64,000 bases of DNA from positions 264,804 to 328,803 of the forward strand of contig JAJRVL010000004.1 of the NCBI GenBank assembly GCA_024277355.1, read 5' to 3'. Shown here piece by piece: positions 1,184 to 53,051 of this stretch. Made by a program: the position numbers and the translations under genes. Source of the stretch: an archaeon. GTDB taxonomy: Archaea > Iainarchaeota > Iainarchaeia > Iainarchaeales > 1-14-0-10-31-34. The notes below the pieces were generated by a model. It made no database searches, had not been told where the DNA came from, and saw only the letters and a list, made by a program, of their open reading frames with translations. Numbering within the stretch: position 1 is the stretch's first letter; each line of letters starts with the position of its first letter.

Positions 1184-2062
1184 GTGAAAAAAATGACAAC
1201 TTATTCTGAAGCAGGAGTAAACATAGAAAAAGGAACTGAAACAGTCAAAAGAATAAAAAAACACGTTAAATCTACTTTTAATGAAAATGTATTGCTTGAT
1301 TCAGGTTTATTTGCAGGCGCAATAGACTTAAAAAAAATAAAAAAAATGAATAATCCTGTGTTGCTTTCAAGCATTGACGGAGTAGGAACCAAAACAGTTA
1401 TAGCAGAAAAAATGAATAAATGGGATTCAATTGGACAAGATTTAGTTAATCATTCAGTTAATGACATTTTATGCCATGGAGGAGAACCAATTGCTTTTTT
1501 AGATTATGTTGCTTCTTCTTCAATTAAACCTGAAATAATAGAAGAAATAGTTCAAGGAATGACAGTTGCATGCAAAGAAAATGGAGTTGCATTAATTGGC
1601 GGGGAAACAGCAGAAATGCCTGATGTATACCAAGAAAATGAAATAGACTTAGCAGGAACAATACTTGGAATAGTAGAAAAAGAAAAACTTATTACAGGAA
1701 AAAACATAAAAGAAAAAGATGTACTTATTGCATTGCCTTCAAATGGTTTGCATACAAACGGATATTCTCTTGCAAGAAAAGTAATAGAAAAAACAAAAAT
1801 AAGCCTGAAAGAACAGTTTGTAGTAGAAAAAGAAGATTTAACTATTGGAGGAGAACTCTTAAAAATCCATAAAAGTTATCTGAAAGAAGTAAGTTTTTTA
1901 TTAAAAAAATTTGAATTAAAAGGAATTTCTCATATTACCGGCGGAGGATTAATTGATAATTTGCCAAGAATTTTTCCTGAAGGAATTGGAGCAAAAATAA
2001 ATCCAAACAAAATTAAAATTCCATTTATTTTTGAATGGATTCAAGAAAATGGAGTTATTTAA
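1184..2062 (+). CDS. purM: phosphoribosylformylglycinamidine cyclo-ligase (AIR synthase, PurM). The ORF ends at an in-frame TAA, and the conserved PurM C-terminus continues in the same frame to 2242.
   Basis: Contains YSEAGVNI, DGVGTK and HSVNDILCHGGEP. After TAA at 2060-2062 the same frame reads EEEMFKTFNMGVGMVLIV..., which is the conserved PurM C-terminal block. It ends at TAA 2240-2242. Confidence 0.85.
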   Translation: MKKMTTYSEAGVNIEKGTETVKRIKKHVKSTFNENVLLDSGLFAGAIDLKKIKKMNNPVLLSSIDGVGTKTVIAEKMNKWDSIGQDLVNHSVNDILCHGGEPIAFLDYVASSSIKPEIIEEIVQGMTVACKENGVALIGGETAEMPDVYQENEIDLAGTILGIVEKEKLITGKNIKEKDVLIALPSNGLHTNGYSLARKVIEKTKISLKEQFVVEKEDLTIGGELLKIHKSYLKEVSFLLKKFELKGISHITGGGLIDNLPRIFPEGIGAKINPNKIKIPFIFEWIQENGVI

Positions 2063-2242: not shown

Positions 2243-2306
2243 ATTTTTGCAGGACTATCAAGCAAAACAAAGACAGCACGCGTTACTCGCGGATGCAACT
2301 GCAACA

Positions 2307-2531
2307 TTAAAACATTCCTTTTGCAGATTTCCTTGCTTTTCTCATGCATTTTTTATGCCAGTATTGTCCAGCCCATTTTTTTTCTGAACCAGCTCCGCCA
2401 CATAAAGCACAATCCTGAACATATTTTCCTTCAGGTTCTGCAGTAACTTCTTCTTTTTTTTCTATTTCTTCTTCTTTTTTCTTAAACATATCAGTTAAAC
2501 CCATAAAACCACAGAAAAAGATAAAGAACAA
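2307..2531 (-). CDS. hypothetical small protein with an N-terminal hydrophobic segment and Cys/His-containing C-terminus (possible zinc ribbon)
   Basis: 74-aa ORF. CALCGG...HKKC arrangement. No recognisable family. Confidence 0.35.
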   Translation of the reverse strand: MFFIFFCGFMGLTDMFKKKEEEIEKKEEVTAEPEGKYVQDCALCGGAGSEKKWAGQYWHKKCMRKARKSAKGMF

Positions 2532-2566: not shown

Positions 2567-4195
2567 ATGAATAAAAAAATAAGTTTAATTTTAGTGTTTT
2601 TTATTTTAATTGGAACAACAACTATTGCAGGAGGAATAATTCTGCCGCCTCCAGTAGACAATCCTTCTCTTATAGCTGAATGGTATCCTATCTGGGATCA
2701 AACTCCTGAAAGAGTAGGACCAGCAACCTTTATCTATTTTAAAGTTAAAACAACCTGCAATAATGGACCATGCGACAATGTAACTGCAACAATTCAGTGC
2801 TGTGAAGGAGACGGCTGTACTAACTATGTGGATATGCCTTATCCTTCAGGAAGCTGCGGCAATTCAGGAATTCTTCAGACATATACTGAAACAATACAAG
2901 ACCTTGGAAGTTTTAGTGGAGATAAATATCCTAAATGGACTCTTCACATAAATTTTCCTGGAGCACAAGGACACATATTTAATTTAAGAATAATTACAAA
3001 AGGATCATTTATTGACACTAATTATCTTTCAGGAATGCAATTAGAAATGGATAATTATCCAGGAATTACTTTAAATTCTCCTTCTACTTCTGAAACAACT
3101 GAAGTTTCAATTGGAGGGCAATTATCAATTAACTGGACAACAACAGATTTAGATAACGATAACATTCTTTCAAGAATTTATTATTATCCTGTAGGAAATC
3201 CTGGAAACACACAAATGATTTATCAAAGTCCATGGCAGGCTCCGGGAACGCATTCAACTAACTGGACTATTCCTGATGTTGACACAGGAAATTATTATTT
3301 ATATGTTAATGCAAATGACAATTATACAAGCACTAATTCAAAAAATGCAACAATAAATATAAATCCTGCTCCTTCAACTCTTTCAGCTTTAATTCTTTCT
3401 CCTTCTGACTTAAATAATTTTTTTATTGGTTCAACAATAAACTTTAAGTCAAATATTAAATGCGGAAATTCTCCTTGCACTGTTAAATGGGATTCAAATA
3501 AAGACTCAGAATGGTATTCAACAGATGAAAATTTTAGTTATTCAGGTTTAAGCATTGGAGACCATAATATTACTTTAACTGTAACTGATTCTATTTCTGA
3601 AACTGCAACTGATTCAGTTAACATAAAAATTAATCCAATTACAGCAGATGTTTTATCTATTTCAGATTTTGAAATAATTAAAGTTGAACCAAATAATAGG
3701 TTTGCAGTAAACGGAAAAATCAGAATAAAAGCAAAAGTAAATTATTACCAAAGCCAATCAATAAGCGGAAAAGCTTTCATAATAATAAGCGATTCAATTA
3801 CACACAAAGCAATTTATGGTCCTGAACCATTTTATTTCAGTTTTACTATTCCTTCATTTGAAGAATATGACTTAAACATTGATTTAAGCAATTATCCTTT
3901 TGTTGAAAGACAAAATTACAAAGTAGAATTTTTAGCTGTAAGCAATCAAGTTGAATCATCAGGAGAATATTTTGTTAATCCAGTTGATTCTGATAGTGCT
4001 TACTGGGATGACGGAGACAGTTATTATATTCCAGATGAACAAATCCCTGAACAAAACAAAGCAAACAATTCAGGTTACCAAATAATAGAATTAGGTCCTG
4101 CAAATTTAGGGGACATAAGCCAACTACCCGAAACAAATCCTGCAATTATTTTATTAATTTTATTTAGTGTGCTGATAATAATTAAAAAAAAATAA
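2567..4195 (+). CDS. secreted cell-surface protein (542 aa) with N-terminal signal or anchor and a C-terminal LPETN-hydrophobic-KKK sorting-signal-like tail
   Basis: N-terminal hydrophobic segment. Cys-rich, Asn/Thr-rich extracellular body. The C-terminus reads QLPETNPAIILLILFSVLIIIKKK. Confidence 0.6.
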   Translation: MNKKISLILVFFILIGTTTIAGGIILPPPVDNPSLIAEWYPIWDQTPERVGPATFIYFKVKTTCNNGPCDNVTATIQCCEGDGCTNYVDMPYPSGSCGNSGILQTYTETIQDLGSFSGDKYPKWTLHINFPGAQGHIFNLRIITKGSFIDTNYLSGMQLEMDNYPGITLNSPSTSETTEVSIGGQLSINWTTTDLDNDNILSRIYYYPVGNPGNTQMIYQSPWQAPGTHSTNWTIPDVDTGNYYLYVNANDNYTSTNSKNATININPAPSTLSALILSPSDLNNFFIGSTINFKSNIKCGNSPCTVKWDSNKDSEWYSTDENFSYSGLSIGDHNITLTVTDSISETATDSVNIKINPITADVLSISDFEIIKVEPNNRFAVNGKIRIKAKVNYYQSQSISGKAFIIISDSITHKAIYGPEPFYFSFTIPSFEEYDLNIDLSNYPFVERQNYKVEFLAVSNQVESSGEYFVNPVDSDSAYWDDGDSYYIPDEQIPEQNKANNSGYQIIELGPANLGDISQLPETNPAIILLILFSVLIIIKKK

Positions 4196-4254: not shown

Positions 4255-5415
4255 TTATTTATTTTCCATTAATTTTTTTAGAATTGGAGGGGTAGCTAAA
4301 GTTGTAAGCATTATTACTACTACTAAAACAGAATACATTCCATCTCCAATAAAAGCATGAGCTAAACCAAAAGTAGCAAAAATTAAACCTACTTCCCCTC
4401 TTGGAATCATTCCAACTCCAACCGCCATCTTTGAAGCAGGAGTTCCAATTGCACCAAAACCTGCAATAATTTTTCCCACTAAAGCAATTATTAACAAAAC
4501 AATTCCTAAGGGAATTAAATCAATATTAACAGTTGAAATATTTACTGCTACTCCAGCCATAACAAAAAAAATTGGAGTAAAAACATCTCCGATTACTTCA
4601 GTTTTCTTCATTATATGTTCTTTGTGTTCTTCTCTTTCAAGAACCAAACCTGCTGCAAAAGCTCCAACAATTGCAGCTAAACCAATTAATTGAGCTAAAT
4701 AACCTAAAGTTAAAGCAAAAATAACTGAAGTTACAACAAAAGTTCTCTGAACTTTTAATGCACGAATAATTTTTAGGATTGGCTCCTCTAATTTTATTCC
4801 AATTACAACTGTTACTGCTAAAAACAAAAAAGATACAACAATTGTCTGCAATACATTAAAGATTTCAACTGAACCTGTTTCAGCTATTCCAGCTAAAACA
4901 GACAAAATTATTAATCCTAAAATATCATCAATTACTGCAGCTCCAAGAATAATTTTTCCTTCAAGCGAAGTTACTTTTTTCATTTCACTTAAAACACGCA
5001 TTGTTACTCCAACACTAGTTGCAGTCAAAGTCGCAGCAATAAACAAAGCAGCATTAAAATTTAATAATTCAATATAAAGCAGATAAGGCAAAGCCAGCAG
5101 CATTGGAGCAACAACTCCAATTATTGCAACAATTAAAGCAGCTTTACCGCTTTTTAATAATTCATGAATATTAGATTCTAATCCAACTAAAAATAATAAA
5201 ATTATTACTCCTATTTCAGATAAAAACATTAAGATTTCTTCATGGCCAGTAATAAAACCAAATAAACTTGGCCCTAATAAAACTCCAACTAATAATTCTC
5301 CTAAAACTCTTGGCTGTTTTATTTGATCAAACAAATATCCTGCAAGTTTTGCAGAAATTAATATTACAATTAGTTTAAGCATTATTTCAGCTATTACTTC
5401 ACTTCCTCCAGACAA
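4255..5415 (-). CDS. monovalent cation:proton antiporter, CPA2 family (KefB/NapA-like Na+/H+ exchanger)
   Basis: 386 aa with about 11-12 TM helices. Start region LAGYLFDQIKQPRVLGELLVGVLLGPS is typical of the Na_H_Exchanger family. Confidence 0.8.
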   Translation of the reverse strand: MSGGSEVIAEIMLKLIVILISAKLAGYLFDQIKQPRVLGELLVGVLLGPSLFGFITGHEEILMFLSEIGVIILLFLVGLESNIHELLKSGKAALIVAIIGVVAPMLLALPYLLYIELLNFNAALFIAATLTATSVGVTMRVLSEMKKVTSLEGKIILGAAVIDDILGLIILSVLAGIAETGSVEIFNVLQTIVVSFLFLAVTVVIGIKLEEPILKIIRALKVQRTFVVTSVIFALTLGYLAQLIGLAAIVGAFAAGLVLEREEHKEHIMKKTEVIGDVFTPIFFVMAGVAVNISTVNIDLIPLGIVLLIIALVGKIIAGFGAIGTPASKMAVGVGMIPRGEVGLIFATFGLAHAFIGDGMYSVLVVVIMLTTLATPPILKKLMENK

Positions 5416-5635
5416 AAAAATTCCCCCTGATTCAATTCTAAAAGAAAAAAATAATCTCAGAAAACTTTAAAAACTTAATTAAATAAATTCAGAAATTCAA
5501 AAAAAAATATTGTTTTAAAAAAAACATTAAAAAAAATAAGAAATAATTAATTAAAATTTAGTTTAGAAATAACTTTAATTAATGCAACAACAAAAAGAAT
5601 AACTTTAATTACTTATTATTCTTTTTTAATATCAG

Positions 5636-5860
5636 ATGTTTGTCAAGACAATAAAAAAAATATTTAAAACTTTAAAAAAAATAGTTTCTGGTTTAATTAA
5701 TTCACTTCTTCTTTTATTAGTTTATTTCACTGCAGTGGCTTTAACTTCAATTTTTGCAAAAATTCTTGGGAAAAAATTCCTTGAAACAAAAGCAAAAAAA
5801 AGCTACTGGCAGGAAATGAAATTAAACACAAAAAAAGAAGATTATTACAGGCAATTCTGA
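5636..5860 (+). CDS. hypothetical small membrane protein
   Basis: 74 aa with one TM helix and a basic N-terminus. It lies immediately upstream of the methyltransferase gene on the same strand. Confidence 0.3.
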   Translation: MFVKTIKKIFKTLKKIVSGLINSLLLLLVYFTAVALTSIFAKILGKKFLETKAKKSYWQEMKLNTKKEDYYRQF

Positions 5861-5870
5861 GGAAAAAAAA

Positions 5871-6734
5871 ATGAATGCAGGAGAAAAAGTAAAAGAATTT
5901 TATAACAAAACACCTTTTCCTGGTTTTGAATTAAAAAAATTTAACAGCAAAAAAGAACTCAAAATTACTGCTTCTTCTTTTGCTGAAACATTAGACAGAA
6001 GTATCCCTGAAAATGCTTCAGTAATTGATGTAGGAACAGGAACAGGCCAGTTAGCAGGATTACTTTCATTAAGAAGAAAAAAAGTTATGGGAATAGATTT
6101 CTCTGAAAATTCTTTGAATCAAGCAAAAAAACTAAAAGAAAAATTAAAATTAAATTCACTGGAATTAAAAAAAATTGATTTATTAAATGACAAAGAAATT
6201 GAAGCAATAGGAAAATTTGATTATGTTTTATGTTTAGGAGTATTACAGCACACTGCAAATCCATATAAAGGATTTACAAACCTGCTGAAACTACTAAAAC
6301 CTAAAGGATTTATTGCAGTAGGATTATACAACAAGTTTGGAAGAATTCCACTGAAAATAAGAAAAGTTCTGACAAAAACAGTTTTCAAAGACAATGAAAA
6401 AATAAAAAAACATTTTATTTCAATGCAGTTGGATTCACTTAAAGATAAAAAAAAAACTGAAGCATGGTGGCAGGACCAGTATTTTCATCCATTTGAATCA
6501 ACTCATTTTTTAGGAGAAGTTTTAGACTGGTTTAAAAAAAATAAAATAGAATTTTATCAGACAATTCCTTCATTGAATTTTTTTGACGAACAAAAACTGG
6601 AAATTGCAGGAGTATGGAACAAATACAATGAAACAAAACCTTCTTTTTTAAAAAGAAATTTAATTCAGTTAAGCTGGATTTGGAAAACACAAAAAGAAGG
6701 CGGATATTGGATTACTTTCGGGAGAAAAAAATGA
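5871..6734 (+). CDS. class I SAM-dependent methyltransferase
   Basis: Motif I VIDVGTGTGQLAGLL and the post-I acidic residue. ATGA overlap with the downstream carbamoyltransferase start. Confidence 0.75.
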   Translation: MNAGEKVKEFYNKTPFPGFELKKFNSKKELKITASSFAETLDRSIPENASVIDVGTGTGQLAGLLSLRRKKVMGIDFSENSLNQAKKLKEKLKLNSLELKKIDLLNDKEIEAIGKFDYVLCLGVLQHTANPYKGFTNLLKLLKPKGFIAVGLYNKFGRIPLKIRKVLTKTVFKDNEKIKKHFISMQLDSLKDKKKTEAWWQDQYFHPFESTHFLGEVLDWFKKNKIEFYQTIPSLNFFDEQKLEIAGVWNKYNETKPSFLKRNLIQLSWIWKTQKEGGYWITFGRKK

Positions 6735-9999: not shown

Positions 10000-10019
10000 A
10001 GCAAACCGTAGTCTAAATT

Positions 10020-10060
10020 TTGTTCAACCTTTTTTTAAAAGGTTGCTAGACTACGGAGCT
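10020..10060 (-). promoter_or_regulatory. tRNA-Gln 5' leader/promoter region with hairpin CAACCTTTTAAAAAAAGGTTG (TATA-like A/T box) and a duplicated copy of the tRNA 5' 15 nt
   Basis: Seen directly. AGCTCCGTAGTCTAG (tRNA positions 1-15) recurs about 55 nt upstream on the same strand. An inverted copy of TAGACTACGG lies between the two. Confidence 0.35.
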
Positions 10061-10227
10061 ATTAAATTAATTAATAAAATAAAAATAGTCTTATAAATAA
10101 TTTAATTTCAATAAGTTTAAATTGGTTTACTTAAAGTACTTTTTATTACTGTTTGTGTTTACAGTCCGGCTAAATAAAGTTAATAGCAAGTATGCACTCA
10201 AACAGCAAAATATTTTCAAAAGTTTTT

Positions 10228-10372
10228 AGTAAAGCTTTTTTTGAAAAAGGTTTAGTTTGTGTTTGCAAAGCAAACCGTTTTTGATAAAACTTTTTTCTAA
10301 AAAGTTTGTTTTAATAAAACTTTTTCCAAAAAGGATTATGTTTTTGATAAAACTTTTTTCTAAAAAGTTTTT
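10228..10372. repeat. AT-rich palindromic dispersed repeat (family B) upstream of tRNA-Ile. It contains a 30-nt direct duplication (TTTTTGATAAAACTTTTTTCTAAAAAGTTT, two copies).
   Basis: 10228-10305 is about 85% identical to the reverse complement of 27247-27325. It holds multiple CTTTTT-N-AAAAAG hairpins. Confidence 0.6.
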
Positions 10373-11422: not shown

Positions 11423-11923
11423 ATGCAGGAAAAAAAAGAATCAGAATATAAAATTGTTTCAGATTACCAAAAACTAGAAAAACAAGTAGAAAAACAAATA
11501 AGAAACGGCAACATAAAACTTCCTTTTGGGGGTTTTTATCAAACAGGTTATTTAGGGCATTCAATAAAAGCAATAGTTAAAGAAGAAAAACTTGTAAGTT
11601 TAATGGTTTATTCAATTAATGAAAAAACATGCGATATTGCATATATTTGGCATAATCCTCGTCTTGCAGTTGAATACAAAAAAACAAACAAAATATCTCC
11701 TTCAAAATTTTTATTAAAATCAATTGCTAAAAAAGGAATTACATCATTTACAACACAATATTTAACAAAAACCGGCAGAAAAATGGTATTAAAATTAATT
11801 AAAGAAAACGTAATAATTGAAAAAGGATTGAAAAGAATAAATCCAAAACCCAAATTCAGGAAATTTCTTAACAAAATGCCAACAGAATATAAATTTAAAT
11901 TAGTAAAACGACATCCCAAATAA
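11423..11923 (+). CDS. hypothetical basic protein
   Basis: 166-aa ORF with a lysine-rich C-terminus. No recognisable motif. The only long ORF across this interval. Confidence 0.4.
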   Translation: MQEKKESEYKIVSDYQKLEKQVEKQIRNGNIKLPFGGFYQTGYLGHSIKAIVKEEKLVSLMVYSINEKTCDIAYIWHNPRLAVEYKKTNKISPSKFLLKSIAKKGITSFTTQYLTKTGRKMVLKLIKENVIIEKGLKRINPKPKFRKFLNKMPTEYKFKLVKRHPK

Positions 11924-11927
11924 AATA

Positions 11928-13292
11928 TTATACCAGTATTGGCCAGACAAAATAAGCCATTAAAGTCAATAAAATTACTCCAATTAAAGCAATAACTATT
12001 CCAGGTTTAGCCATATCAGAAGTTTTAATGTATCCTGAAGAATAAGCTATAGTGCTTGGAGGCGTTCCAATTGGAACAATAAAATCCAAAGAAACACCAA
12101 TTGCAATAACCATTACCGCAAATTCAACTGGAATTCCCAATCCTTGCGCTAAAGGAATAACTAAAGGAATACTGATAGCTGCTGCAGCAGTATTGCTTGC
12201 AACTAAAGTAAAAATTACAGCAAAAACAATTAAAGCAAACAAAATCAGCAATAAAGCTTGTCCAGACAAAAAAGTAAATAAAATATCAGCAAATAATCCA
12301 TCTAATCCAACAGTCTGAATAGCACTTCCAAGAGTTAATCCTCCTCCAAATAAAATCAAAGAACTCCAAGAAACTTTATTTATATCGTTTGTTTCAAGTA
12401 AACCAAAAGAATACAATAAAATAATTGGAATCATTGCAACAACAGAAGTTGAAATTCCATGAATTTTAGTTGTAAGCCACATTAAAACTGTTACTCCAAA
12501 AATAAACAAAACAAGTTTTTGTTTTTGAGTCAAAGGTTTAAAAGAAAAATCTGATTTAATAAAATGAATTTCAGGAGGAAAAAATTTAGTTAAAACAAAC
12601 CACGCAACAGGAAGCAGTAAAATTACCATCGGCAAAGCATAAAACATCCAGTCAGTAAAACCAAAAGAAAAGCCTGCATCATTTAAATAACTTAAAGCCA
12701 TTGCATTAGGAGGAGAACCAATAACAGTTCCAATTCCTCCAATAGTGGCAGAAAAAGCAATACCTAAAACTAATGCTTTACCAAACTTTGAATCCAAAGG
12801 CTTTAATCCATTTGAATTTAATACAACTAAAGCAATTGGAAGCAAAATAGCAGTTGAAGCAGTGTTTGACATCCAAAAAGAAAAAAAAGCAGTTAAACAC
12901 ATTAAACCAAACAAAAATCGTTTAGGTTTATGTCCAACTTTTTTAATTAAATGAAAAGTAATTAATTTATCTAAACCATGTTTCTGTAAACCTAAAGCTA
13001 AAATAAATCCACCTAATAATAACATTATTACTGGATCAAAAAAAGGCGTAAAAACTGTTTTTGGAGTAAAAACTGTTTTGTCATAAAATCCTCCAACTAC
13101 AATTAACAAAAAAGCTGCAATAAAAGCAGTAATATGCAATGGAACTAATTCAGAAAACCATAAAATCATTGCTAAAAATAAAACAGACAAAACAACTTTT
13201 TGCAATGGTTCAATTTGCAGTGGAGAAAACAAAACTGCAAGAAATGCAATAACTGCAAAAACTGCAATAAAAAACCTTATTTTTTGTTTCAT
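11928..13292 (-). CDS. anion permease of the ArsB/NhaD/SLC13 (DASS) superfamily
   Basis: 454 aa, polytopic. Repeated halves with a GTPPN-like re-entrant motif (IGSPPNAMAL). Confidence 0.7.
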   Translation of the reverse strand: MKQKIRFFIAVFAVIAFLAVLFSPLQIEPLQKVVLSVLFLAMILWFSELVPLHITAFIAAFLLIVVGGFYDKTVFTPKTVFTPFFDPVIMLLLGGFILALGLQKHGLDKLITFHLIKKVGHKPKRFLFGLMCLTAFFSFWMSNTASTAILLPIALVVLNSNGLKPLDSKFGKALVLGIAFSATIGGIGTVIGSPPNAMALSYLNDAGFSFGFTDWMFYALPMVILLLPVAWFVLTKFFPPEIHFIKSDFSFKPLTQKQKLVLFIFGVTVLMWLTTKIHGISTSVVAMIPIILLYSFGLLETNDINKVSWSSLILFGGGLTLGSAIQTVGLDGLFADILFTFLSGQALLLILFALIVFAVIFTLVASNTAAAAISIPLVIPLAQGLGIPVEFAVMVIAIGVSLDFIVPIGTPPSTIAYSSGYIKTSDMAKPGIVIALIGVILLTLMAYFVWPILV

Positions 13293-19623: not shown

Positions 19624-19665
19624 TTCATTAATTTTTGTTAGGTTAAAAATTTAAACTAATTTTAA

Positions 19666-19831
19666 CGCCCTAGAAAGGATTTGAACCTTTGACCTTCCGG
19701 TATCTGCTTTCACATAGGTGGAATAAGGCACGGCATAAAGCCGTGCTAGCGCTACTTTATGTAGCGCACACGCGTCAACCGAGTGAGCGGTTGTTTAACA
19801 GCCGGATGCTCTACCACTAAGCTACCAGAGC
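19666..19831 (-). tRNA. tRNA-Asn (anticodon GUU) with a 94-nt intron (19701..19794) after the anticodon loop
   Basis: Exon 1 is GCTCTGGTAGCTTAGTGGTAGAGCATCCGGCTGTTAA and exon 2 is CCGGAAGGTCAAAGGTTCAAATCCTTTCTAGGGCG. The anticodon stem TCCGG/CCGGA re-forms only after removal of the intervening GC-hairpin-rich segment. Confidence 0.8.
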
Positions 19832-19841
19832 AAAAAAAAAT

Positions 19842-26753: not shown

Positions 26754-27110
26754 ATGGCTCAAATAATAAATTTCTTTATTCATATAATTACATTTCTCTT
26801 TATTTTAATTCCTTTATTTCTCCTGTATAGAATTAAATCCAAAGAATACTCAAAATTAATAGGAATAAAATCAAAAAATAAATTAATTAAATCCCTTAAT
26901 CTTATTGTATTAGGATTTATTCCAATTGCATTAATTCATTTATTTGAAGCACTTTCAGTTTACGGAATTAATATACTTCCTCATGAAACCACTTTGTTTC
27001 ATATGACTGCAGAACACCTTGCATTAATAATTGCATTTATTTCCATCAGCTTTTTTCTGCTTAAATTTGAACAGACTTTAACTGAATTAAAAGATGCTTT
27101 ATGCAAATAA
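26754..27110 (+). CDS. hypothetical membrane protein (3-4 TM)
   Basis: 118-aa hydrophobic ORF. Confidence 0.4.
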   Translation: MAQIINFFIHIITFLFILIPLFLLYRIKSKEYSKLIGIKSKNKLIKSLNLIVLGFIPIALIHLFEALSVYGINILPHETTLFHMTAEHLALIIAFISISFFLLKFEQTLTELKDALCK

Positions 27111-27190
27111 ACTTTTAGAAAAAAAAGCTTTATCAAAACAACTGTTTCGGCAGTTGAGTGCGATGCGCTATCTTTGATAGCGTTGCAATG
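27111..27190. repeat. structured GC-rich element, family A copy 1 (candidate ncRNA or intron-like element)
   Basis: AACTTTTAGAAAAAAAAGCTTTATCAAAACAACTGTTTCGGCAGTTGAGTGCGATGCGCTATCTTTGATAGCGTTGCAATGAAC. Its head is about 90% identical to 49187-49235. It contains the hairpins CAACTG-TTTCGG-CAGTTG and GCGCTATC-TTT-GATAGCG. Confidence 0.6.
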
Positions 27191-27360
27191 AACTTTTCCA
27201 AAAAAAGCTTTACCAAAAACTTAAATTTTCTGTATTCCGTCACACAAACCTTTTTAGAAAAAAGGTTTATCAAAAATTAGTTTGCAAACACAAACTAAAC
27301 CTTTTTGGAAAAAAGCTTTACCAAAAACTTAAATCTTTTGTATTCCGTCACACATAGGGA
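27191..27360. repeat. composite AT-rich repeat: two ~55-nt direct repeats (27193-27247 and 27300-27356) flanking an inverted copy of the family B element seen at 10228-10305
   Basis: The direct repeat is CTTTT(C/T)(C/G)(A/G)AAAAAAGCTTTACCAAAAACTTAAAT(T/C)TT(C/T)TGTATTCCGTCACACA. The centre aligns to the reverse complement of 10228-10305. Confidence 0.6.
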
Positions 27361-37953: not shown

Positions 37954-38174
37954 GGGCCCATAGTCTAGTGGATAGGACAGCAGCCTCCTAAACTTTTTTC
38001 GCAAAAAAGTTTAATCAAAAAAGCAAACTTTTCTGCGAAAAGTTTGTATACAAAAAATAATTTTGTTGCAACTTTAGGGAGAGGCAGTGCGACTTTACGT
38101 CGCACATTTTGGCAACTTGCCTTTTCTTAAAAGGCAGAAAGCTGCGGACCCGAGTTCGACTCTCGGTGGGCCCG
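37954..38174 (+). tRNA. tRNA-Arg (anticodon CCU) with a ~149-nt intron after the anticodon loop
   Basis: Exon 1 is GGGCCCATAGTCTAGTGGATAGGACAGCAGCCTCCTAA. Exon 2 is (A)GCTGCGGACCCGAGTTCGACTCTCGGTGGGCCCG. The anticodon stem GCAGC/GCTGC re-forms after removal of 37991/2..38139/40. Confidence 0.8.
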
Positions 38175-43990: not shown

Positions 43991-43995
43991 GTTTT

Positions 43996-44253
43996 TTATT
44001 TGTATATTTTATCATGATGAGCATAATCTTCTAACACAACAGTTTTTCCTTTAATAGAATAAACCAATACAAAACTTTTCAGAATATGAACTCTTCTTTT
44101 ATTCTGTAATGGCTTTCTTAAAGGCTTAAATGTGAAAGGATTTTCAAGAATTTGTCTTATTTTATTTTTCACTGCTTTTTCATGCAAAGAATCTTTTTTT
44201 GCTATTTTTTCAAATATTTTATCAACATGCTTTTTTACTTCTAATTTATACAA
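43996..44253 (-). CDS. RelE/ParE-family type II toxin
   Basis: 85 aa. KIRQILENPFTFKPLRKPLQNKRRVHILKSFVLVYSIKGKTVVLEDYAHHDKIY matches the RelE/ParE fold consensus (NP...GK.L.G.....R.RIG.YR..Y....v.il.igHR). Confidence 0.65.
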   Translation of the reverse strand: MYKLEVKKHVDKIFEKIAKKDSLHEKAVKNKIRQILENPFTFKPLRKPLQNKRRVHILKSFVLVYSIKGKTVVLEDYAHHDKIYK

Positions 44254-44259
44254 TTAAAA

Positions 44260-44502
44260 TCATCTCTTGCGAAGCTTTTCAAAATATTCATCAAGACTTT
44301 TAACCTTAATTGTTTTTTCCTTCTCAATCATTTTCATTTTCTCAATATAATCAGTTCTTAATTCTGGTTCAAGCAATTCTTTTTCATATTCTTCAGCCAT
44401 TTTATTTATTGCCTGGCTTTTATCCTTTAAATCATACTTTGCTTTAACCAGATTTATAACATGATTAGCTTCTTTATTTATTTTCACAATCGCAGTCGGC
44501 AC
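44260..44502 (-). CDS. putative cognate antitoxin
   Basis: 80-aa ORF immediately upstream of the toxin on the same strand with a 6-nt gap. This is the classic antitoxin-first bicistron. Confidence 0.45.
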   Translation of the reverse strand: MPTAIVKINKEANHVINLVKAKYDLKDKSQAINKMAEEYEKELLEPELRTDYIEKMKMIEKEKTIKVKSLDEYFEKLRKR

Positions 44503-44613
44503 ATTATCACCATATTAATACCATATTAACATGATATTAACAAAGCATTAAAAGTCTTTACTTAAAGTAATTTGAAAGAAAATAAAAAGCTTTAGTTACG
44601 TCAATTGCAGAAA

Positions 44614-48339: not shown

Positions 48340-48360
48340 TAAAAAGGTTTAAAAAGACTA

Positions 48361-48630
48361 TTGTACATTTGTACACTTATGCAAGTGTTTAAATCTCTTT
48401 CATGCGATTCAAAAGTAAAAATCCTTGAACTTTTGTTAAAAGACAATCACGACTGCAGTAATTCCCTTTCAAAAAAAATTAAGTTGGATCCTTCAACTGT
48501 TTCTAGACATTTAAAGGAATTAACTAATGCAGGATTAATTAAAATGCAGAAAAAAGGAAAAAGCATTGAATGTGTTGTCTTAAACAAAAAAAAAGTTTCA
48601 TTGCTTTTAAAGACTGCAAGAGAGATATAA
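48361..48630 (+). CDS. ArsR/SmtB-family metalloregulatory wHTH repressor
   Basis: 89 aa. KILELLLKDNHDCSNSLSKKIKLDPSTVSRHLKELTNAGLI has a Cys pair in helix 3 and the STVSxHLxxLxxAGL recognition helix. Confidence 0.6.
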   Translation: MYICTLMQVFKSLSCDSKVKILELLLKDNHDCSNSLSKKIKLDPSTVSRHLKELTNAGLIKMQKKGKSIECVVLNKKKVSLLLKTAREI

Positions 48631-48979: not shown

Positions 48980-49179
48980 GCCCTGGTCGTCTAGTGGTTA
49001 GGATACAGCCCTGTCAATCCACCCTTTCTTTTTAGAAAAAAGAAAGTGTAAGTTGCCTAAAAAAAACTTGTTTGAAATAAAACGGTTTTTTCTTTTTGGA
49101 CAACTTGTACTTTTTCTTTTTTCCAAAAAAGAAAAAGGACAGAAAGGCTGTGACTCGGGTTCAAGTCCCGGCCAGGGCG
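48980..49179 (+). tRNA. tRNA-Asp (anticodon GUC) with a ~128-nt intron (about 49018..49145)
   Basis: Exon 1 is GCCCTGGTCGTCTAGTGGTTAGGATACAGCCCTGTCAA and exon 2 is GGCTGTGACTCGGGTTCAAGTCCCGGCCAGGGCG. The anticodon stem CAGCC/GGCTG re-forms after intron removal. Confidence 0.8.
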
Positions 49180-49186
49180 TAAAACT

Positions 49187-49320
49187 TTTAAAAAAAAGTT
49201 TTATCAAAACAACTGTTTCGGCAGTTGAGTGCGATATGCTATCTTACGATAGCAGTGCTTGGAATTCGCGGTTGCGTCCGCGAGCAACGCGTGCTATCTA
49301 AAGATAGCACTGCAATAAAC
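49187..49320. repeat. structured GC-rich element, family A copy 2, immediately 3' of tRNA-Asp
   Basis: AAACTTTTAAAAAAAAGTTTTATCAAAACAACTGTTTCGGCAGTTGAGTGCGAT is shared with 27111-27165. It is followed by the hairpins GCTATC-TTAC-GATAGC, CGCGGTTGCG..CGCGAGCAACGCG and GTGCTATC-TAAA-GATAGCAC, then TGCAATAAAC (cf. TGCAATGAAC in copy 1). Confidence 0.6.
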
Positions 49321-49424
49321 TCTCACTATTTAGACAAAAAATCACGCCAACAATAAATTAATAAAAAGTTTATATGCGAATATTATGTTCATTCTGATTT
49401 TACAGAATTGACTAAGGGATTAAA

Positions 49425-50666
49425 ATGCAGTTTTTAGATGAATTCAAAAAAGGTTTAATGTGGGGCATGCTTACAAGTGTAGACTTGTTTGAATGTAATC
49501 CAAAAAAAATTCGTTCAAAACAAGACATTAAAGAATATGTTAAACAATTATGCAAAAAAATTGACATGAAAACTTTTGGAGAAACAATTGTAGTAAGATT
49601 TGGTAAAGACAAAAGAGTTCAAGGTTACTCAATGACGCAATTAATTGAAACTTCTTTAATCAGCGGTCATTTTGCTGAAAACACTAATTCAGCTTACTTG
49701 GATATTTTCAGCTGTAAATATTATAATGCAGAAGAAGTAGAAGATTTCTCTAAAAAATTTTTTGAAGCAAAAAAATCAGAGTCAAATATTACTTTCAGAA
49801 AAATGCCTGAAGCAGCAAAAAATAAATTACTTGACATTCCTAATTCAAAAAACTGGTTTTTTGAATCAATTGAATTTAATCAGGGAAGAGCTTTAGCATT
49901 AAAAGCCAAACAATTATATTCAACTCAAAGTTCTTTTCAAAAAATAGAAGTATATAATACTAATTCTTTTGGAAAAATGCTTGTATTAGACGGAGCAATA
50001 CAATTAACTCAAGCAGATGAATTTGCTTATCACGAAATGATAGTGCACCCTGCATTAAATACTCATCCTAAAACAGAAAAAGTTTTAATTATTGGCGGAG
50101 CAGACGGCGGAACAGCAAGAGAAACAGCAAAACACAAAACAATAAAAGAAATTCATTTATGTGATTTAGATAAAAAAGTTGTTTTAACATCAAAAAAATT
50201 CCTGCCTTTTACTGCAGCAGGATTAAAAGATAAAAGATTAAGTGTTTTTCATAAAGATGGATTTAAGTTTTTAAAAGAAAAAGAAAATTATTATGATGTA
50301 ATAATAATTGATTCAACTGATCCAATTGGAGTCGGAAAAATATTATTTAGTTCAAAGTTTTTTAAACTTGTATTTAATTCATTAAAAAAAGACGGAATAA
50401 TGGTTAATCAATTTCAAAGCATGTTTTATGAAAAAAAATTAATTAAAGAAATAACAAAAACAATAAAGAAAATTTTCCCTAAATTCTGGTATTATTATAC
50501 TTTAGTTCCTTCATATCCTTCTGGAACAATAGGTTTTGGTTTTGCAAGCAAAAAACATTCTCCTTTAAATCCAAAAAATAAAAACATTAAGGACTTGAAG
50601 TATTATAATTTAGAAATCCATAAAGCAAGTTTTGTTTTGCCTAAATTTATGGAAAAAATAGTTTAA
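49425..50666 (+). CDS. speE: fusion protein: S-adenosylmethionine decarboxylase proenzyme (SpeH/SpeD-like, pyruvoyl-dependent) fused to spermidine synthase (SpeE)
   Basis: N-terminal ~120 aa has the small AdoMetDC pattern (..LIETSLISGHFAENTNSAYLDIFSCKYY; cf. ESHISIHTWPE...DVFTCG). The C-terminal domain has FQKIEVY, VLDGAIQLTQADEFAYHEM, IIGGADGG and IIIDSTDPIGVG of aminopropyltransferases. Confidence 0.7.
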   Translation: MQFLDEFKKGLMWGMLTSVDLFECNPKKIRSKQDIKEYVKQLCKKIDMKTFGETIVVRFGKDKRVQGYSMTQLIETSLISGHFAENTNSAYLDIFSCKYYNAEEVEDFSKKFFEAKKSESNITFRKMPEAAKNKLLDIPNSKNWFFESIEFNQGRALALKAKQLYSTQSSFQKIEVYNTNSFGKMLVLDGAIQLTQADEFAYHEMIVHPALNTHPKTEKVLIIGGADGGTARETAKHKTIKEIHLCDLDKKVVLTSKKFLPFTAAGLKDKRLSVFHKDGFKFLKEKENYYDVIIIDSTDPIGVGKILFSSKFFKLVFNSLKKDGIMVNQFQSMFYEKKLIKEITKTIKKIFPKFWYYYTLVPSYPSGTIGFGFASKKHSPLNPKNKNIKDLKYYNLEIHKASFVLPKFMEKIV

Positions 50667-52469: not shown

Positions 52470-52550
52470 TTTTTTACACCTATAATAATTTTAACAGCCC
52501 TTTAAACAGGGCAGTATTTTTAAAGCTTTAAATCCATATAATTTACTGCC

Positions 52551-53051
52551 ATGATCTACAAAAAAAATAAACTTTTTTGTTCAATAAAAACAGGCAAAGT
52601 AAAAATAAATTCTATTGCTAAAAGTATAAAAAGTATTATGTTAAAGGAAAAAAGCCTTTTTGTGCTGTTTAACCTTAATTCTACTCCTTCAATAAGCCAT
52701 ATTATTTTCTGCATTAATTCAATTCCTGAAAAATTCACTGCAATAGACTTTTTAATTAAATTAACAGGAGAAAAACAACTTTCTTTAATTAGAAAAAAAA
52801 CTGAATTAAACAAAACTAAAAATGCTTGTTTAATTGTATTTGAATCAAATAAAATTAAAGCTAAAAAAATTTCTGAAAAAATAAGCAAAGAAATTGGATT
52901 AAAAGAAAACAAAGAAATTTCATCTGAAAAAAGACTTAAAGAATTAATTAAAAAAGAAAAATTAAATAAAAAAATACTTAATGGATTTGGCGAAGACTTT
53001 TATTCTTCTGTGAACAATTTTTTTATTGAAAAAAGTGCTGTGGTTAAATGA
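52551..53051 (+). CDS. hypothetical protein
   Basis: 166-aa ORF. ATGA overlap with the downstream oligosaccharyltransferase-like gene suggests co-transcription. Confidence 0.4.
   Translation: MIYKKNKLFCSIKTGKVKINSIAKSIKSIMLKEKSLFVLFNLNSTPSISHIIFCINSIPEKFTAIDFLIKLTGEKQLSLIRKKTELNKTKNACLIVFESNKIKAKKISEKISKEIGLKENKEISSEKRLKELIKKEKLNKKILNGFGEDFYSSVNNFFIEKSAVVK

Follow-up and report, generated by a model that had tools for sequence, protein, structure and literature searches.

Near-identical hairpin-forming elements in a DPANN archaeon belong to an oriented, modular family of intergenic cassettes

Short, modular, multi-copy hairpin repeats of several described families lie between the genes of bacteria, among them REP/BIME, BOX of Streptococcus pneumoniae and the Correia elements of Neisseria. 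These repeats are found just after stop codons and also within operons, their modules are shuffled or duplicated, and some of them carry promoters or terminators. To our knowledge, almost nothing is known of the non-coding signals of DPANN archaea, which are uncultured and have tiny genomes and no transcript maps. Nanoarchaeum equitans places fixed-distance box A promoters, 26 to 27 nt upstream of the start, at its leaderless tRNA and sRNA genes, and its small RNA genes neighbour tRNA genes, overlap the 3' ends of mRNAs or lie within tRNA introns (PMC3491384).

Here we describe an intergenic element that resembles each of these systems in part. Two intact copies (copy 1 and copy 2) were found in the window, by which we mean the whole stretch of 64,000 nucleotides analyzed. 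Like REP/BIME, BOX and Correia repeats, the element is short, modular, hairpin-forming, multi-copy and intergenic. It differs from them in being archaeal, in its strict orientation relative to transcription, in a core that is conserved above coding DNA, and in that no RAYT/IS200-type transposase, terminal inverted repeat (TIR) or target duplication was found with it. The mobile C/D box sRNA genes of N. equitans offer a second parallel in their tRNA-adjacent positions, their occurrence at mRNA 3' ends and in tRNA introns, and their rearranged modules (PMC3491384), but our element has neither C/D boxes nor a match to an Rfam snoRNA or sRNA. No published description of the family was found in Rfam 15 or in the literature searched. 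The family itself is real, conserved, oriented and modular; its function is inferred.

The source is a DPANN archaeon. Genes in the window include those for an archaeal-type GlyRS, a Nop-domain protein and ribosomal protein S8e; the closest relatives of the GlyRS are 76 to 83% identical and are deposited as 'archaeon' or 'Candidatus Diapherotrites'. The original prediction described GC-rich islands in DNA of about 28% GC, with a head of about 55 nt that is nearly identical in two copies. Indeed, the GC content of the window is 27.8%, and the aligned heads (27111-27165 and 49183-49236) agree at 51 of 56 positions, with a 36-nt run, TTTATCAAAACAACTGTTTCGGCAGTTGAGTGCGAT, that is identical in copy 1 (27129-27164) and copy 2 (49200-49235) and has a chance expectation of 0. 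The match of the heads therefore stands, although the span first given for copy 2 (49187-49241) was about 4 to 5 nt too high. The hairpins built on GCTATC/GATAGC and the terminal TGCAAT(G/A)AAC that had been noticed are likewise present in both copies. At the equivalent place copy 1 has 19 nt (27165-27183) and copy 2 has 75 nt (49236-49310), so that the insertion claimed at about 60 nt amounts to 56 extra bases, which form two further hairpins. The best-conserved part between the copies is thus the box plus the palindrome H1 (36 of 36 positions identical), whereas the hairpin part differs by the 56-nt insertion. The parts of the element and related sequences are listed in Table 1.

Table 1. 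Positions of the element's parts and of related sequences in the window (HP, A/T hairpin; H1, 18-nt palindrome; H2, hairpin within the closing helix)
Feature	Position	Strand	Composition and remarks
Copy 1 A/T hairpin HP	27111-27138	+	ACTTTT-AG-AAAAAAAAGC; 3' half plus TTTATCAAAA = BRE/TATA-like box
Copy 1 H1 palindrome	27139-27156	+	CAACTG-TTTCGG-CAGTTG; invariant core common to other DPANN genomes
Copy 1 putative short transcript	27157-27197	+	Linker AGTGCGAT, closing helix and H2; ends predicted
Copy 1 closing helix	27159-27162 / 27184-27187	+	UGCG / UGCA; from fold
Copy 1 H2	27165-27183	+	GCGCTATC-TTT-GATAGCGT; from fold; helix covariation
Copy 1 tail, then T4 run	T4 at 27194-27197	+	ATGAAC
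Further HP/BRE-TATA-like units u2-u4	27192-27340	+	Three units with short spacers; repeat family and inverted repeat
Copy 2 HP	49180-49209	+	TAAAACTTTT-AAAAAAAAGTTTTA plus TTTATCAAAA
Copy 2 H1 palindrome	49210-49227	+	Identical to copy 1 H1
Copy 2 hairpin part	49228-49320	+	Linker AGTGCGAT, closing helix, three hairpins, tail TGCAATAAAC; from fold
Copy 2 closing helix	49230-49233 / 49311-49314	+	UGCG / UGCA
Copy 2 hairpin H2a	49236-49255	+	
Copy 2 GC hairpin	49265-49284	+	TTCGCGG-TTGCGT-CCGCGAG
Copy 2 hairpin H2c	49291-49310	+	
Third copy, decayed	2245-2324	-	GCAGTTG...CATCCGCGAGTAACGCGTGCTGTC...TGATAGTCCTGCAAAAAT; nhmmer E 6e-5 against copy 2
Degenerate fragment	~10193-10215	-	GCTGTTTGAGTGCATAC
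Head of 94-nt tRNA-Asn intron	19766-19798	-	AAACAACCG-CTCACT-CGGTTGA...; likeness only; 11.7 bits, E 0.7

Both copies fold in a common way, with H1 (CAACUG/CAGUUG) followed by a closing helix (UGCG/UGCA) around the H2 hairpin or hairpins. The closing helix has 4 bp; a single GCUAUC/GAUAGC hairpin lies within it in copy 1, and copy 2 has three hairpins there. Folding energies are -20.8 kcal/mol for copy 1 (z -3.0 against shuffles) and -47.5 kcal/mol for copy 2 (z -4.9), with none of 200 shuffles as stable as the latter. The compensatory changes looked for in the folds were found in H2, where they keep 93.8% of cells paired and give a covariation score that 0 of 500 shuffles reached, but not in the H1 stem, which shows no covariation among free-standing copies. 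A recurrent mismatch in H2 of three related loci (L002, L003 and L019) is A·C on the plus strand and G·U on the minus strand, and in H2 of copy 1 a G·U pair falls on the plus strand.

Copy 1 directly adjoins the TAA stop (27108-27110) of a 118-aa ORF and lies in a convergent gap. Copy 2 begins 1 nt past the 3' end of tRNA-Asp (48980-49179; 130-nt intron), and downstream of it lies an AdoMetDC-spermidine synthase (speE) fusion gene; there is no T-run between the tail of copy 2 and the conserved promoter of this gene (AAAAAGTTTATATG, ~49362). The decayed copy is located directly 3' of the TAA stop of a 65-aa Cys-rich ORF, also in a convergent gap. Both intact copies sit in variable regions beside tRNA genes, and each is preceded by the A/T hairpin HP (CTTTT-N-AAAAAG) and TTTATCAAAA. 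The HP motif recurs elsewhere in the window, three times at 27192-27340, four times at 10220-10371 and inside the tRNA-Arg intron, where it is conserved in a relative (L039); it also abuts the ends of tRNA-Ile, tRNA-Thr and tRNA-Asp. Two of the spacers between units u2 to u4 (CTTAAATYTTYTGTATTCCGTCACAC) resemble a decayed H1 of the type found in Woesearchaeota, described below. Runs of five to six T residues lie inside the tRNA-Arg and tRNA-Asp introns, suggesting that oligo-T is not an efficient stop in the source organism. If the element is read as a promoter, these runs also suggest that the HP hairpins are not strong terminators, and the proposal that the A/T hairpins act as oligo-T terminators is weakened accordingly.

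We compared the element with known RNA families and other described signals. Searched with the covariance models of Rfam 15, the elements gave no match, whether at the gathering threshold or with E relaxed to 10; ten related loci gave none either, nor did the L019 composite at E up to 1. Over the window and the related loci, only tRNAs were found. A regular-expression search for C/D boxes (C, RUGAUGA with at most one mismatch; D, CUGA exact) returned none on either strand of either copy. A C/D box sRNA was therefore rejected; the minus-strand UGAUGA...CUGA of relatives is wrongly spaced (31 nt) and is missing from the copies in the window. An H/ACA sRNA was set aside for want of a pocket and a 3' ACA, and replication-origin repeats because neither Orc1/Cdc6 nor another replication gene is adjacent. 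DGR, integron attC and SECIS-like recoding signals were rejected for their setting among housekeeping genes, in which only a 6-codon extension precedes an in-frame UGA.

To find related loci, GTDB species genomes and metagenome contigs were each scanned once with a degenerate pattern. In addition to random-looking matches at about the chance rate, the scans returned ten Woesearchaeota-type loci, all of which carry TAAAACAACTGTT(C/T)CGTCAGTTGAGTGCG(G/A)G. A 30-nt core, TAAAA-CAACTG-N6-CAGTTG-AGTGCG, is nearly identical between the window and the Woesearchaeota contigs. It consists of a TA-rich box (TAAAA; in the window TTTATCAAAA after A8G), the 18-nt palindrome H1 (CAACTG-N6-CAGTTG) and AGTGCG, all invariant. 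This supports the earlier suggestion that the repeated, hairpin-forming element is a member of a family, and extends that family to other DPANN genomes. In the eight loci whose contig includes the upstream ORF, the TAA of the core is the stop codon of that ORF (8/8), and in all eight the element points the same way as the genes on both sides. Five types of junction are occupied: PDCD5-like/rpl39e (in four organisms), upstream ORF/rpoA', rps12/rps7, upstream of rpoD, and GHMP kinase/ispH. The Woesearchaeota copies sit within conserved operons.

The modules of the Woesearchaeota copies run in the order H1, AGTGCGGG, HP, CATCAAAAA, H2 (GTRCCATC-TTYG-GATGGCAC), GAA. Module order varies between genomes; in these relatives, an A/U hairpin with a BRE/TATA-like box lies between H1 and H2. 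The block is often followed by a two-hairpin RNA that we call RNA-X, which has seven covarying pairs, as judged from four sequences only, and whose G·U pairs fall on the plus strand. Between loci, the 88-nt block is 82 to 99% identical, and the core is 95 to 100% identical as against 76 to 79% for the neighbouring PDCD5 coding DNA. A profile of the relatives' H1-HP block aligns over 27135-27220 of the window (E 3.4e-7), with the window H2 appearing as extra sequence inserted after H1 and ahead of the next HP. Extra hairpins inside the block are found in L002, in L030 and in copy 2.

No copy is present in the nearest relatives, either in the GlyRS/tRNA-Thr region (L038-L040) or upstream of the speE fusion (L042-L045), and a model search over 95 kb of these relatives gave no match. 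One of them (L042) keeps the speE promoter and leader and lacks the element; where the intact copies would lie, relatives hold LAGLIDADG, Fic and other inserts. Similarly, the PDCD5-rpl39e junction exists empty (TAA followed directly by ATG in L053; an 11-nt gap in L055), with RNA-X and other upstream modules (L048, L056), and filled with H1-HP-H2-RNA-X (the L019 group). With three copies and degenerate units in 64 kb, all intergenic and variably present, the element is multi-copy in the manner of a MITE/REP-type repeat. The original prediction had called it possibly mobile, which agrees with presence and absence at orthologous sites, although neither terminal repeats nor a transposition apparatus came to light. 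The two ends (TAAAAC... and ...TGCAATRAAC) do not form inverted repeats, no RAYT/IS200-IS605-type transposase was found among the eighteen window ORFs scanned, and no convincing target-site duplication was found; the A-rich AAAACAA that flanks the element at either end in L003 and L034 is too frequent a sequence to be taken for one. Transposon ends of the IS200/IS605-like or TIR-type MITE kind were rejected, as the H1 and H2 sequences differ and both TIRs and transposase are absent. An exact-pattern scan of viral contigs returned no copies, and a looser pattern gave two matches, both unrelated and apparently coding sequence, so a viral or plasmid origin was rejected. We conclude that both stretches belong to a family of modular intergenic cassettes with a fixed orientation, found in DPANN archaea, and are probably recent additions specific to this lineage.

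The best reading of the element, which we favour tentatively and at somewhat less than an even chance, is a promoter-bearing cassette. The A-rich run and TTTATCAAAA would then serve as BRE and TATA, and H1 would be a DNA spacer between TATA and the transcription start, not primarily an RNA. Transcription would begin at a purine at about 27153-27158 in copy 1 and about 49224-49229 in copy 2, that is, at (A)GUGCG, and what is transcribed would be the GC-rich hairpin with its UGCG/UGCA closing helix. Copy 1 would yield an RNA of about 40 nt with its 3' end at the U4 run, and copy 2 a structured leader, about 90 nt long, directed toward the speE-fusion gene. Promoter activity, start site and RNA extent are predicted here from sequence features.

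These features are as follows. The promoter consensus of the window, drawn from 45 upstream regions, is AAAAAG-N-TTTAWATA at about 24 to 33 nt before the ATG, and both copies carry AAAAAAAAG(C/T)TTTATCAAAA, which matches this BRE/TATA consensus at the sequence level. The leaderless gene at 52551 has the first T of its box 24 nt ahead of the ATG. The start was extrapolated from the 24 to 28 nt spacing of this gene and of the tRNA-Ile and tRNA-Thr flanks, together with the spacing in N. equitans. A start at the 3' edge of H1 puts H1 in the spacer between TATA and start, and leaves the closing helix and H2 as the transcript. Upstream of tRNA-Ile, TTTTTGATAAAAC is followed by a 19-nt hairpin, TTT and then +1; upstream of tRNA-Thr, ATTTTGATG is followed by CAACTTTTGAAAAAGTTG, CT and then +1. 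The copies parallel this layout with TTTATCAAAA, CAACTGTTTCGGCAGTTG, A and then GTGCG, and the hairpin upstream of tRNA-Thr has CAACT...AGTTG in common with H1. In one relative (L056), 28 nt separate TATTATCAAAAAAG from the 5' end of RNA-X downstream of it.

The element thus resembles archaeal stable-RNA promoters in having an A-rich BRE-like run and a TTTA-type box at the N. equitans box A distance from a purine, in the layout seen at the tRNA-Ile and tRNA-Thr flanks. It differs from them in that its spacer is a conserved, GC-containing perfect palindrome and its box is TTTATCAA instead of TTTAAA or TTTATATA; further, it is repeated, looks mobile and is conserved far past the needs of a promoter. 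Since the best-conserved head coincides with the BRE/TATA-like box and its spacer, the head is more likely promoter DNA than RNA. A promoter would explain why the head, and not the hairpin part, is best conserved between the copies, why a TA-rich box always lies ahead of H1, and why the orientation matches that of the downstream gene.

Other observations fit less readily with a promoter. As TATA boxes, both TTTATCAA and TTTCATCA are imperfect. In their convergent gaps, copy 1 and the decayed copy have no gene ahead of them that a promoter could drive. Read on the minus strand, H1 with TTTT behind it has the geometry of a classic terminator, and a GC-rich perfect palindrome is unusual as a spacer in a region that must melt. 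A promoter also leaves unexplained the A·C mismatch in H2 of three lineages, which turns into G·U on the minus strand. Conservation extends over the whole 88-nt block, beyond BRE and TATA, so that a promoter alone is an insufficient explanation. In addition, TAA abuts the core at five of five junction types, for which the chance is about (1/3)^5 if frames are random, suggesting an upstream 3'-end role or an insertion preference. These points leave room for three alternatives in particular: a 3' UTR element, a decaying repeat and a minus-strand terminator.

The first of these, possible though unlikely, is that H1 and H2 act in cis as the 3' UTR or trailer of the upstream transcript, as a stabiliser, terminator or processing signal, in the manner of REP/BIME or BOX elements of bacterial operons. 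The position of the element directly after a stop codon or a tRNA 3' end, in the same orientation, is consistent with such a role, as are its location inside operons of relatives, where it must be either transcribed or operon-splitting, the compensatory changes that preserve its hairpins and the tolerance of the block for additional ones (L002, L030 and copy 2). In the convergent gaps of copy 1 and the decayed copy, only a 3'-end role is sensible. However, no U-run follows H1 on the plus strand, where relatives have 12 nt before U5 and the window has H2 in between, and the T5-T6 runs within tRNA introns suggest that oligo-T would be an inefficient stop. The lack of any covariation in the H1 stem among free-standing copies and the recurrent plus-strand A·C mismatch in H2 argue in the same direction.

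Less likely than a 3' UTR element is that the copies have no function and belong to a mosaic repeat, as remnants of local duplication or as a decaying, selfish MITE-like element. Their presence is lineage-specific, they are accompanied by decayed copies and tandem arrays of degenerate units, the intact copies occupy variable, tRNA-adjacent regions in which relatives have LAGLIDADG, Fic and other inserts, and orthologous sites in Woesearchaeota are both empty and filled. A decaying repeat would not be expected to keep a core that is more conserved than adjacent coding DNA among organisms sharing the insertion, nor so strict an orientation bias. The missing terminal inverted repeats, clear target duplication and window transposase, together with the lack of copies on viral contigs, also speak against it.

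It is also doubtful, and somewhat more so, that the element works on the minus strand, where the minus-strand form of H1 followed by U4 (and then U8) would make an intrinsic-type terminator, or the 3' end of a short antisense RNA started at the neighbouring HP unit when this is read in the orientation of a tRNA promoter. In both copies, a scan for terminators picks out minus-strand CAACTGCCGAAACAGTTG with TTTTGATAAA behind it, and T8 comes next on that strand in each; a GC-containing stem with a T-run within 0 to 2 nt is seen only for H1 on the minus strand, while the plus-strand H2 helix has T4 after 6 nt. The identical geometry in relatives ends exactly at the complement of the stop codon, and the A·C mismatch in H2 of L002, L003 and L019 becomes G·U on this strand. 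Moreover, the minus-strand unit at 27192-27220 abuts CATTGCAACGC as similar units abut tRNA-Ile and tRNA-Thr. On the other hand, the roughly ten independent instances examined all run in the direction of the genes around them, so that any product of the minus strand would in every case be antisense. The covarying leader RNA-X beside the block has its G·U pairs on the plus strand, as does H2 of copy 1, and the upstream promoter unit available to copy 2 on the minus strand is merely degenerate.

An equally doubtful proposal, and the leading candidate of the original prediction, is a stand-alone, trans-acting small RNA gene comprising H1 and H2, with products of about 55 nt (copy 1) and about 115 nt (copy 2). 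The stable folds, the GC-rich islands in a genome of 28% GC, and the several copies conserved across genomes would suit a small RNA, and the settings of the element resemble those of the N. equitans small RNA genes (PMC3491384). In addition to the absence of an Rfam family and of C/D boxes, the predicted start argues against this, as TATA at 27129 places it at the 3' edge of H1 and so leaves H1 outside the RNA. Relatives, further, insert an A/U hairpin with a BRE/TATA-like box between H1 and H2 and vary the module order, copies decay, and close relatives have none.

The original prediction had also likened the head to the tRNA-Asn intron and proposed an orphan intron or a bulge-helix-bulge (BHB) processing cassette. 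By eye, head and intron both show AAACAAC, a stem of 6 bp in which one pair has changed in a compensatory way, GTTGA and, equally spaced, a GCGCTAC hairpin. This likeness proved statistically inseparable from background: with a covariance model built without the intron, the intron head is the best non-self match at 11.7 bits (E 0.7), the next background match reaching 11.3 bits, its ungapped identity to the head is 28/47 where the background maximum is 26, and nhmmer found no link between the two. A strict helix-bulge-helix-bulge-helix scan, which recovered the true tRNA-Asp motif tacagcc[CTGT](CAA)...[ACAG](AAA)ggctgtg as a positive control, gave nothing convincing around either copy; on either strand, the regions 27080-27360 and 49160-49430 yielded A/T-rich chance matches only. 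No pair of tRNA exon halves encloses either copy: ARAGORN, with introns allowed, predicts six tRNAs and none across either copy, and copy 2 stands behind a complete tRNA-Asp, so a hidden intron-bearing tRNA was rejected. Archaeal BHB introns do share similar A/U and GC hairpins with the element, as well as a 4-bp helix followed by three unpaired bases on each strand (AUG in copy 1 or AUA in copy 2, on both strands), and introns of the source genome contain hairpins of similar kinds, including HP inside that of tRNA-Arg. Yet with no complete BHB, no outer helix, an extra base between the inner and central helices, no flanking exon halves and no significant similarity, an origin as an orphan or mobilised tRNA intron, or cleavage of the element by the splicing endonuclease, is highly improbable.

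Beyond the two intact copies, the core and its hairpins could represent a previously undescribed class of insertable, self-contained promoter-and-leader cassettes of DPANN archaea, or a new cis-acting RNA signal, with the linked idea that hairpin spacers are general in stable-RNA promoters; we regard this broader proposal as speculative and on balance improbable. By inserting into operons that are universal elsewhere (for example rps12-rps7, or at the junction ahead of rpoA'), a promoter-and-leader cassette would divide them and rewire their transcription. A cis-acting RNA signal could serve, for instance, in processing or self-cleavage, from a position immediately behind the stop codon. If hairpin spacers between TATA and +1 are general, they could insulate leaderless tRNA transcription, a need expected in lineages whose RNase P is reduced or absent.

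In either case the family provides a sequence-defined handle, with an ultra-conserved 30-nt core across distant DPANN lineages, insertions into core information-processing operons, and sites that are empty in some organisms and filled in others. As an RNA signal, it would constitute a new and abundant RNA motif. As a promoter cassette, the reading that we favour, it would illustrate how reduced genomes divide and re-wire their operons, and would define a promoter architecture with a palindromic spacer.

Three tRNA genes in the window carry long introns, each after position 37/38 (see the table). None of the three was detected by ARAGORN at default settings, and with introns allowed the program miscalled tRNA-Asp as Ser(aga). 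The strict hBHBh' motif is confined to tRNA-Asp; the intron motifs of tRNA-Asn and tRNA-Arg are relaxed, without the inner helix. T5-T6 runs are present inside the tRNA-Asp and tRNA-Arg introns.

Coordinates of the intron-bearing tRNA genes, tandem arrays, RNA-X elements and companion module
Feature	Sequence	Positions	Strand	Detail
tRNA-Asn gene	window	19665-19832	-	94-nt intron
tRNA-Arg(CCU) gene	window	37954-38174	+	149-nt intron
tRNA-Asp gene	window	48980-49179	+	130-nt intron
Tandem array	window	10220-10371		4 units of ~50 nt
Tandem array	window	27192-27340		3 units of ~50 nt
RNA-X	L019	6540-6640, 7700-7775		
RNA-X	L056	9305-9434, 10435-10513, 13949-14033, 17710-17788		
RNA-X	L048	9332-9419, 10445-10529, 18730-18787		
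RNA-X	L002, L003, L030, L031, L034			
Module ACAATCACGAGAGC...AAGGAGACCAGCTTTTGA	L048	10390-10440, 18620-18670		
Module ACAATCACGAGAGC...AAGGAGACCAGCTTTTGA	L030	1150-1200		
Module ACAATCACGAGAGC...AAGGAGACCAGCTTTTGA	L019	6400-6450		

Each unit of the two tandem arrays combines an A/T hairpin, TTTAYCAAAAA and a short spacer. The arrays share their spacers, and 50 nt are 94% complementary between them. The four-unit array is oriented toward tRNA-Ile, resembling tandem promoters, and the three-unit array occupies a convergent gap. Upstream of tRNA-Gln (10001-10065, minus strand), a second copy of the tRNA's initial 15 nt (AGCTCCGTAGTCTAG) pairs with the complement TAGACTACGG downstream, with an A/T hairpin between them; the result is a long inverted repeat enclosing a BRE/TATA-like box ~28 nt 5' of tRNA position +1. 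In the rps8e divergent promoter region (52470-52550), the GC-rich hairpin CTGCCCTGTTTAAAGGGCTG lies immediately 3' of AAAGCTTTAAAAATA and is a further example of a hairpin between the TATA and the expected start.

In L038, a contig from the nearest relatives of the window organism, a free-standing LAGLIDADG ORF (11720-12742) lies immediately 3' of tRNA-Thr. Since its site corresponds to that of the window's array and copy 1 of the hairpin-bearing cassette, the region downstream of tRNA-Thr is a hotspot for insertions. The same contig encodes an inositol-1-phosphate synthase (4480-6489) containing an intein with a LAGLIDADG domain. L044, also from a close relative, has a GC-rich, apparently structured intergenic stretch of ~120 nt (3590-3710; …GGGGTTACAGTTAGCTGTTAAGGACTGGTCAGGGCGTACCCGATTCCGTGCGGTTGTAACGGAGCACAACCTGTGG…), which may be an unannotated RNA gene.

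Within the window, TTGTACATTTGTACA (48340-48378) contains two TGTACA palindromes and sits between a BRE/TATA-like box and the ATG of a small ORF (48379-48630). It looks like a classic autoregulatory operator, because the L044 counterpart of this ORF is an HTH_5 (ArsR-type) protein. Coding-like sequence apparently continues past the called end of a PurM-like ORF (1193-2062, plus strand) to ~2243 (…MFKTFNMGVGMVLIVSEKD…), which could mean that the reading frame shifts here, that the sequence contains an error or that one gene was called as two. The widest gap among called ORFs (43991-44613; 623 nt, 25% GC) lies upstream of the GcpE gene; an RNA family search of this gap gave no match, and it may contain short minus-strand ORFs.

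RNA-X, a two-hairpin structured element, is abundant in Woesearchaeota, with 3-4 occurrences per 20 kb. It has no match in Rfam and was not found within the 64-kb window. It begins with GGCGARG and a stem that shows covariation and contains tandem G.A loops; GAGCAC comes next, then a short hairpin whose loop is of the GAA type, and finally GGATTGAAAA. Most occurrences lie some tens of nucleotides 5' of start codons, and the downstream genes include rps19e, rpl39e, rps7, rpoA' and the Lhr helicase gene. At some loci a second recurrent module, ACAATCACGAGAGC...AAGGAGACCAGCTTTTGA, is found 5' of RNA-X, and its recurrence in this position suggests that these elements belong to a larger repertoire of modules that can replace one another.
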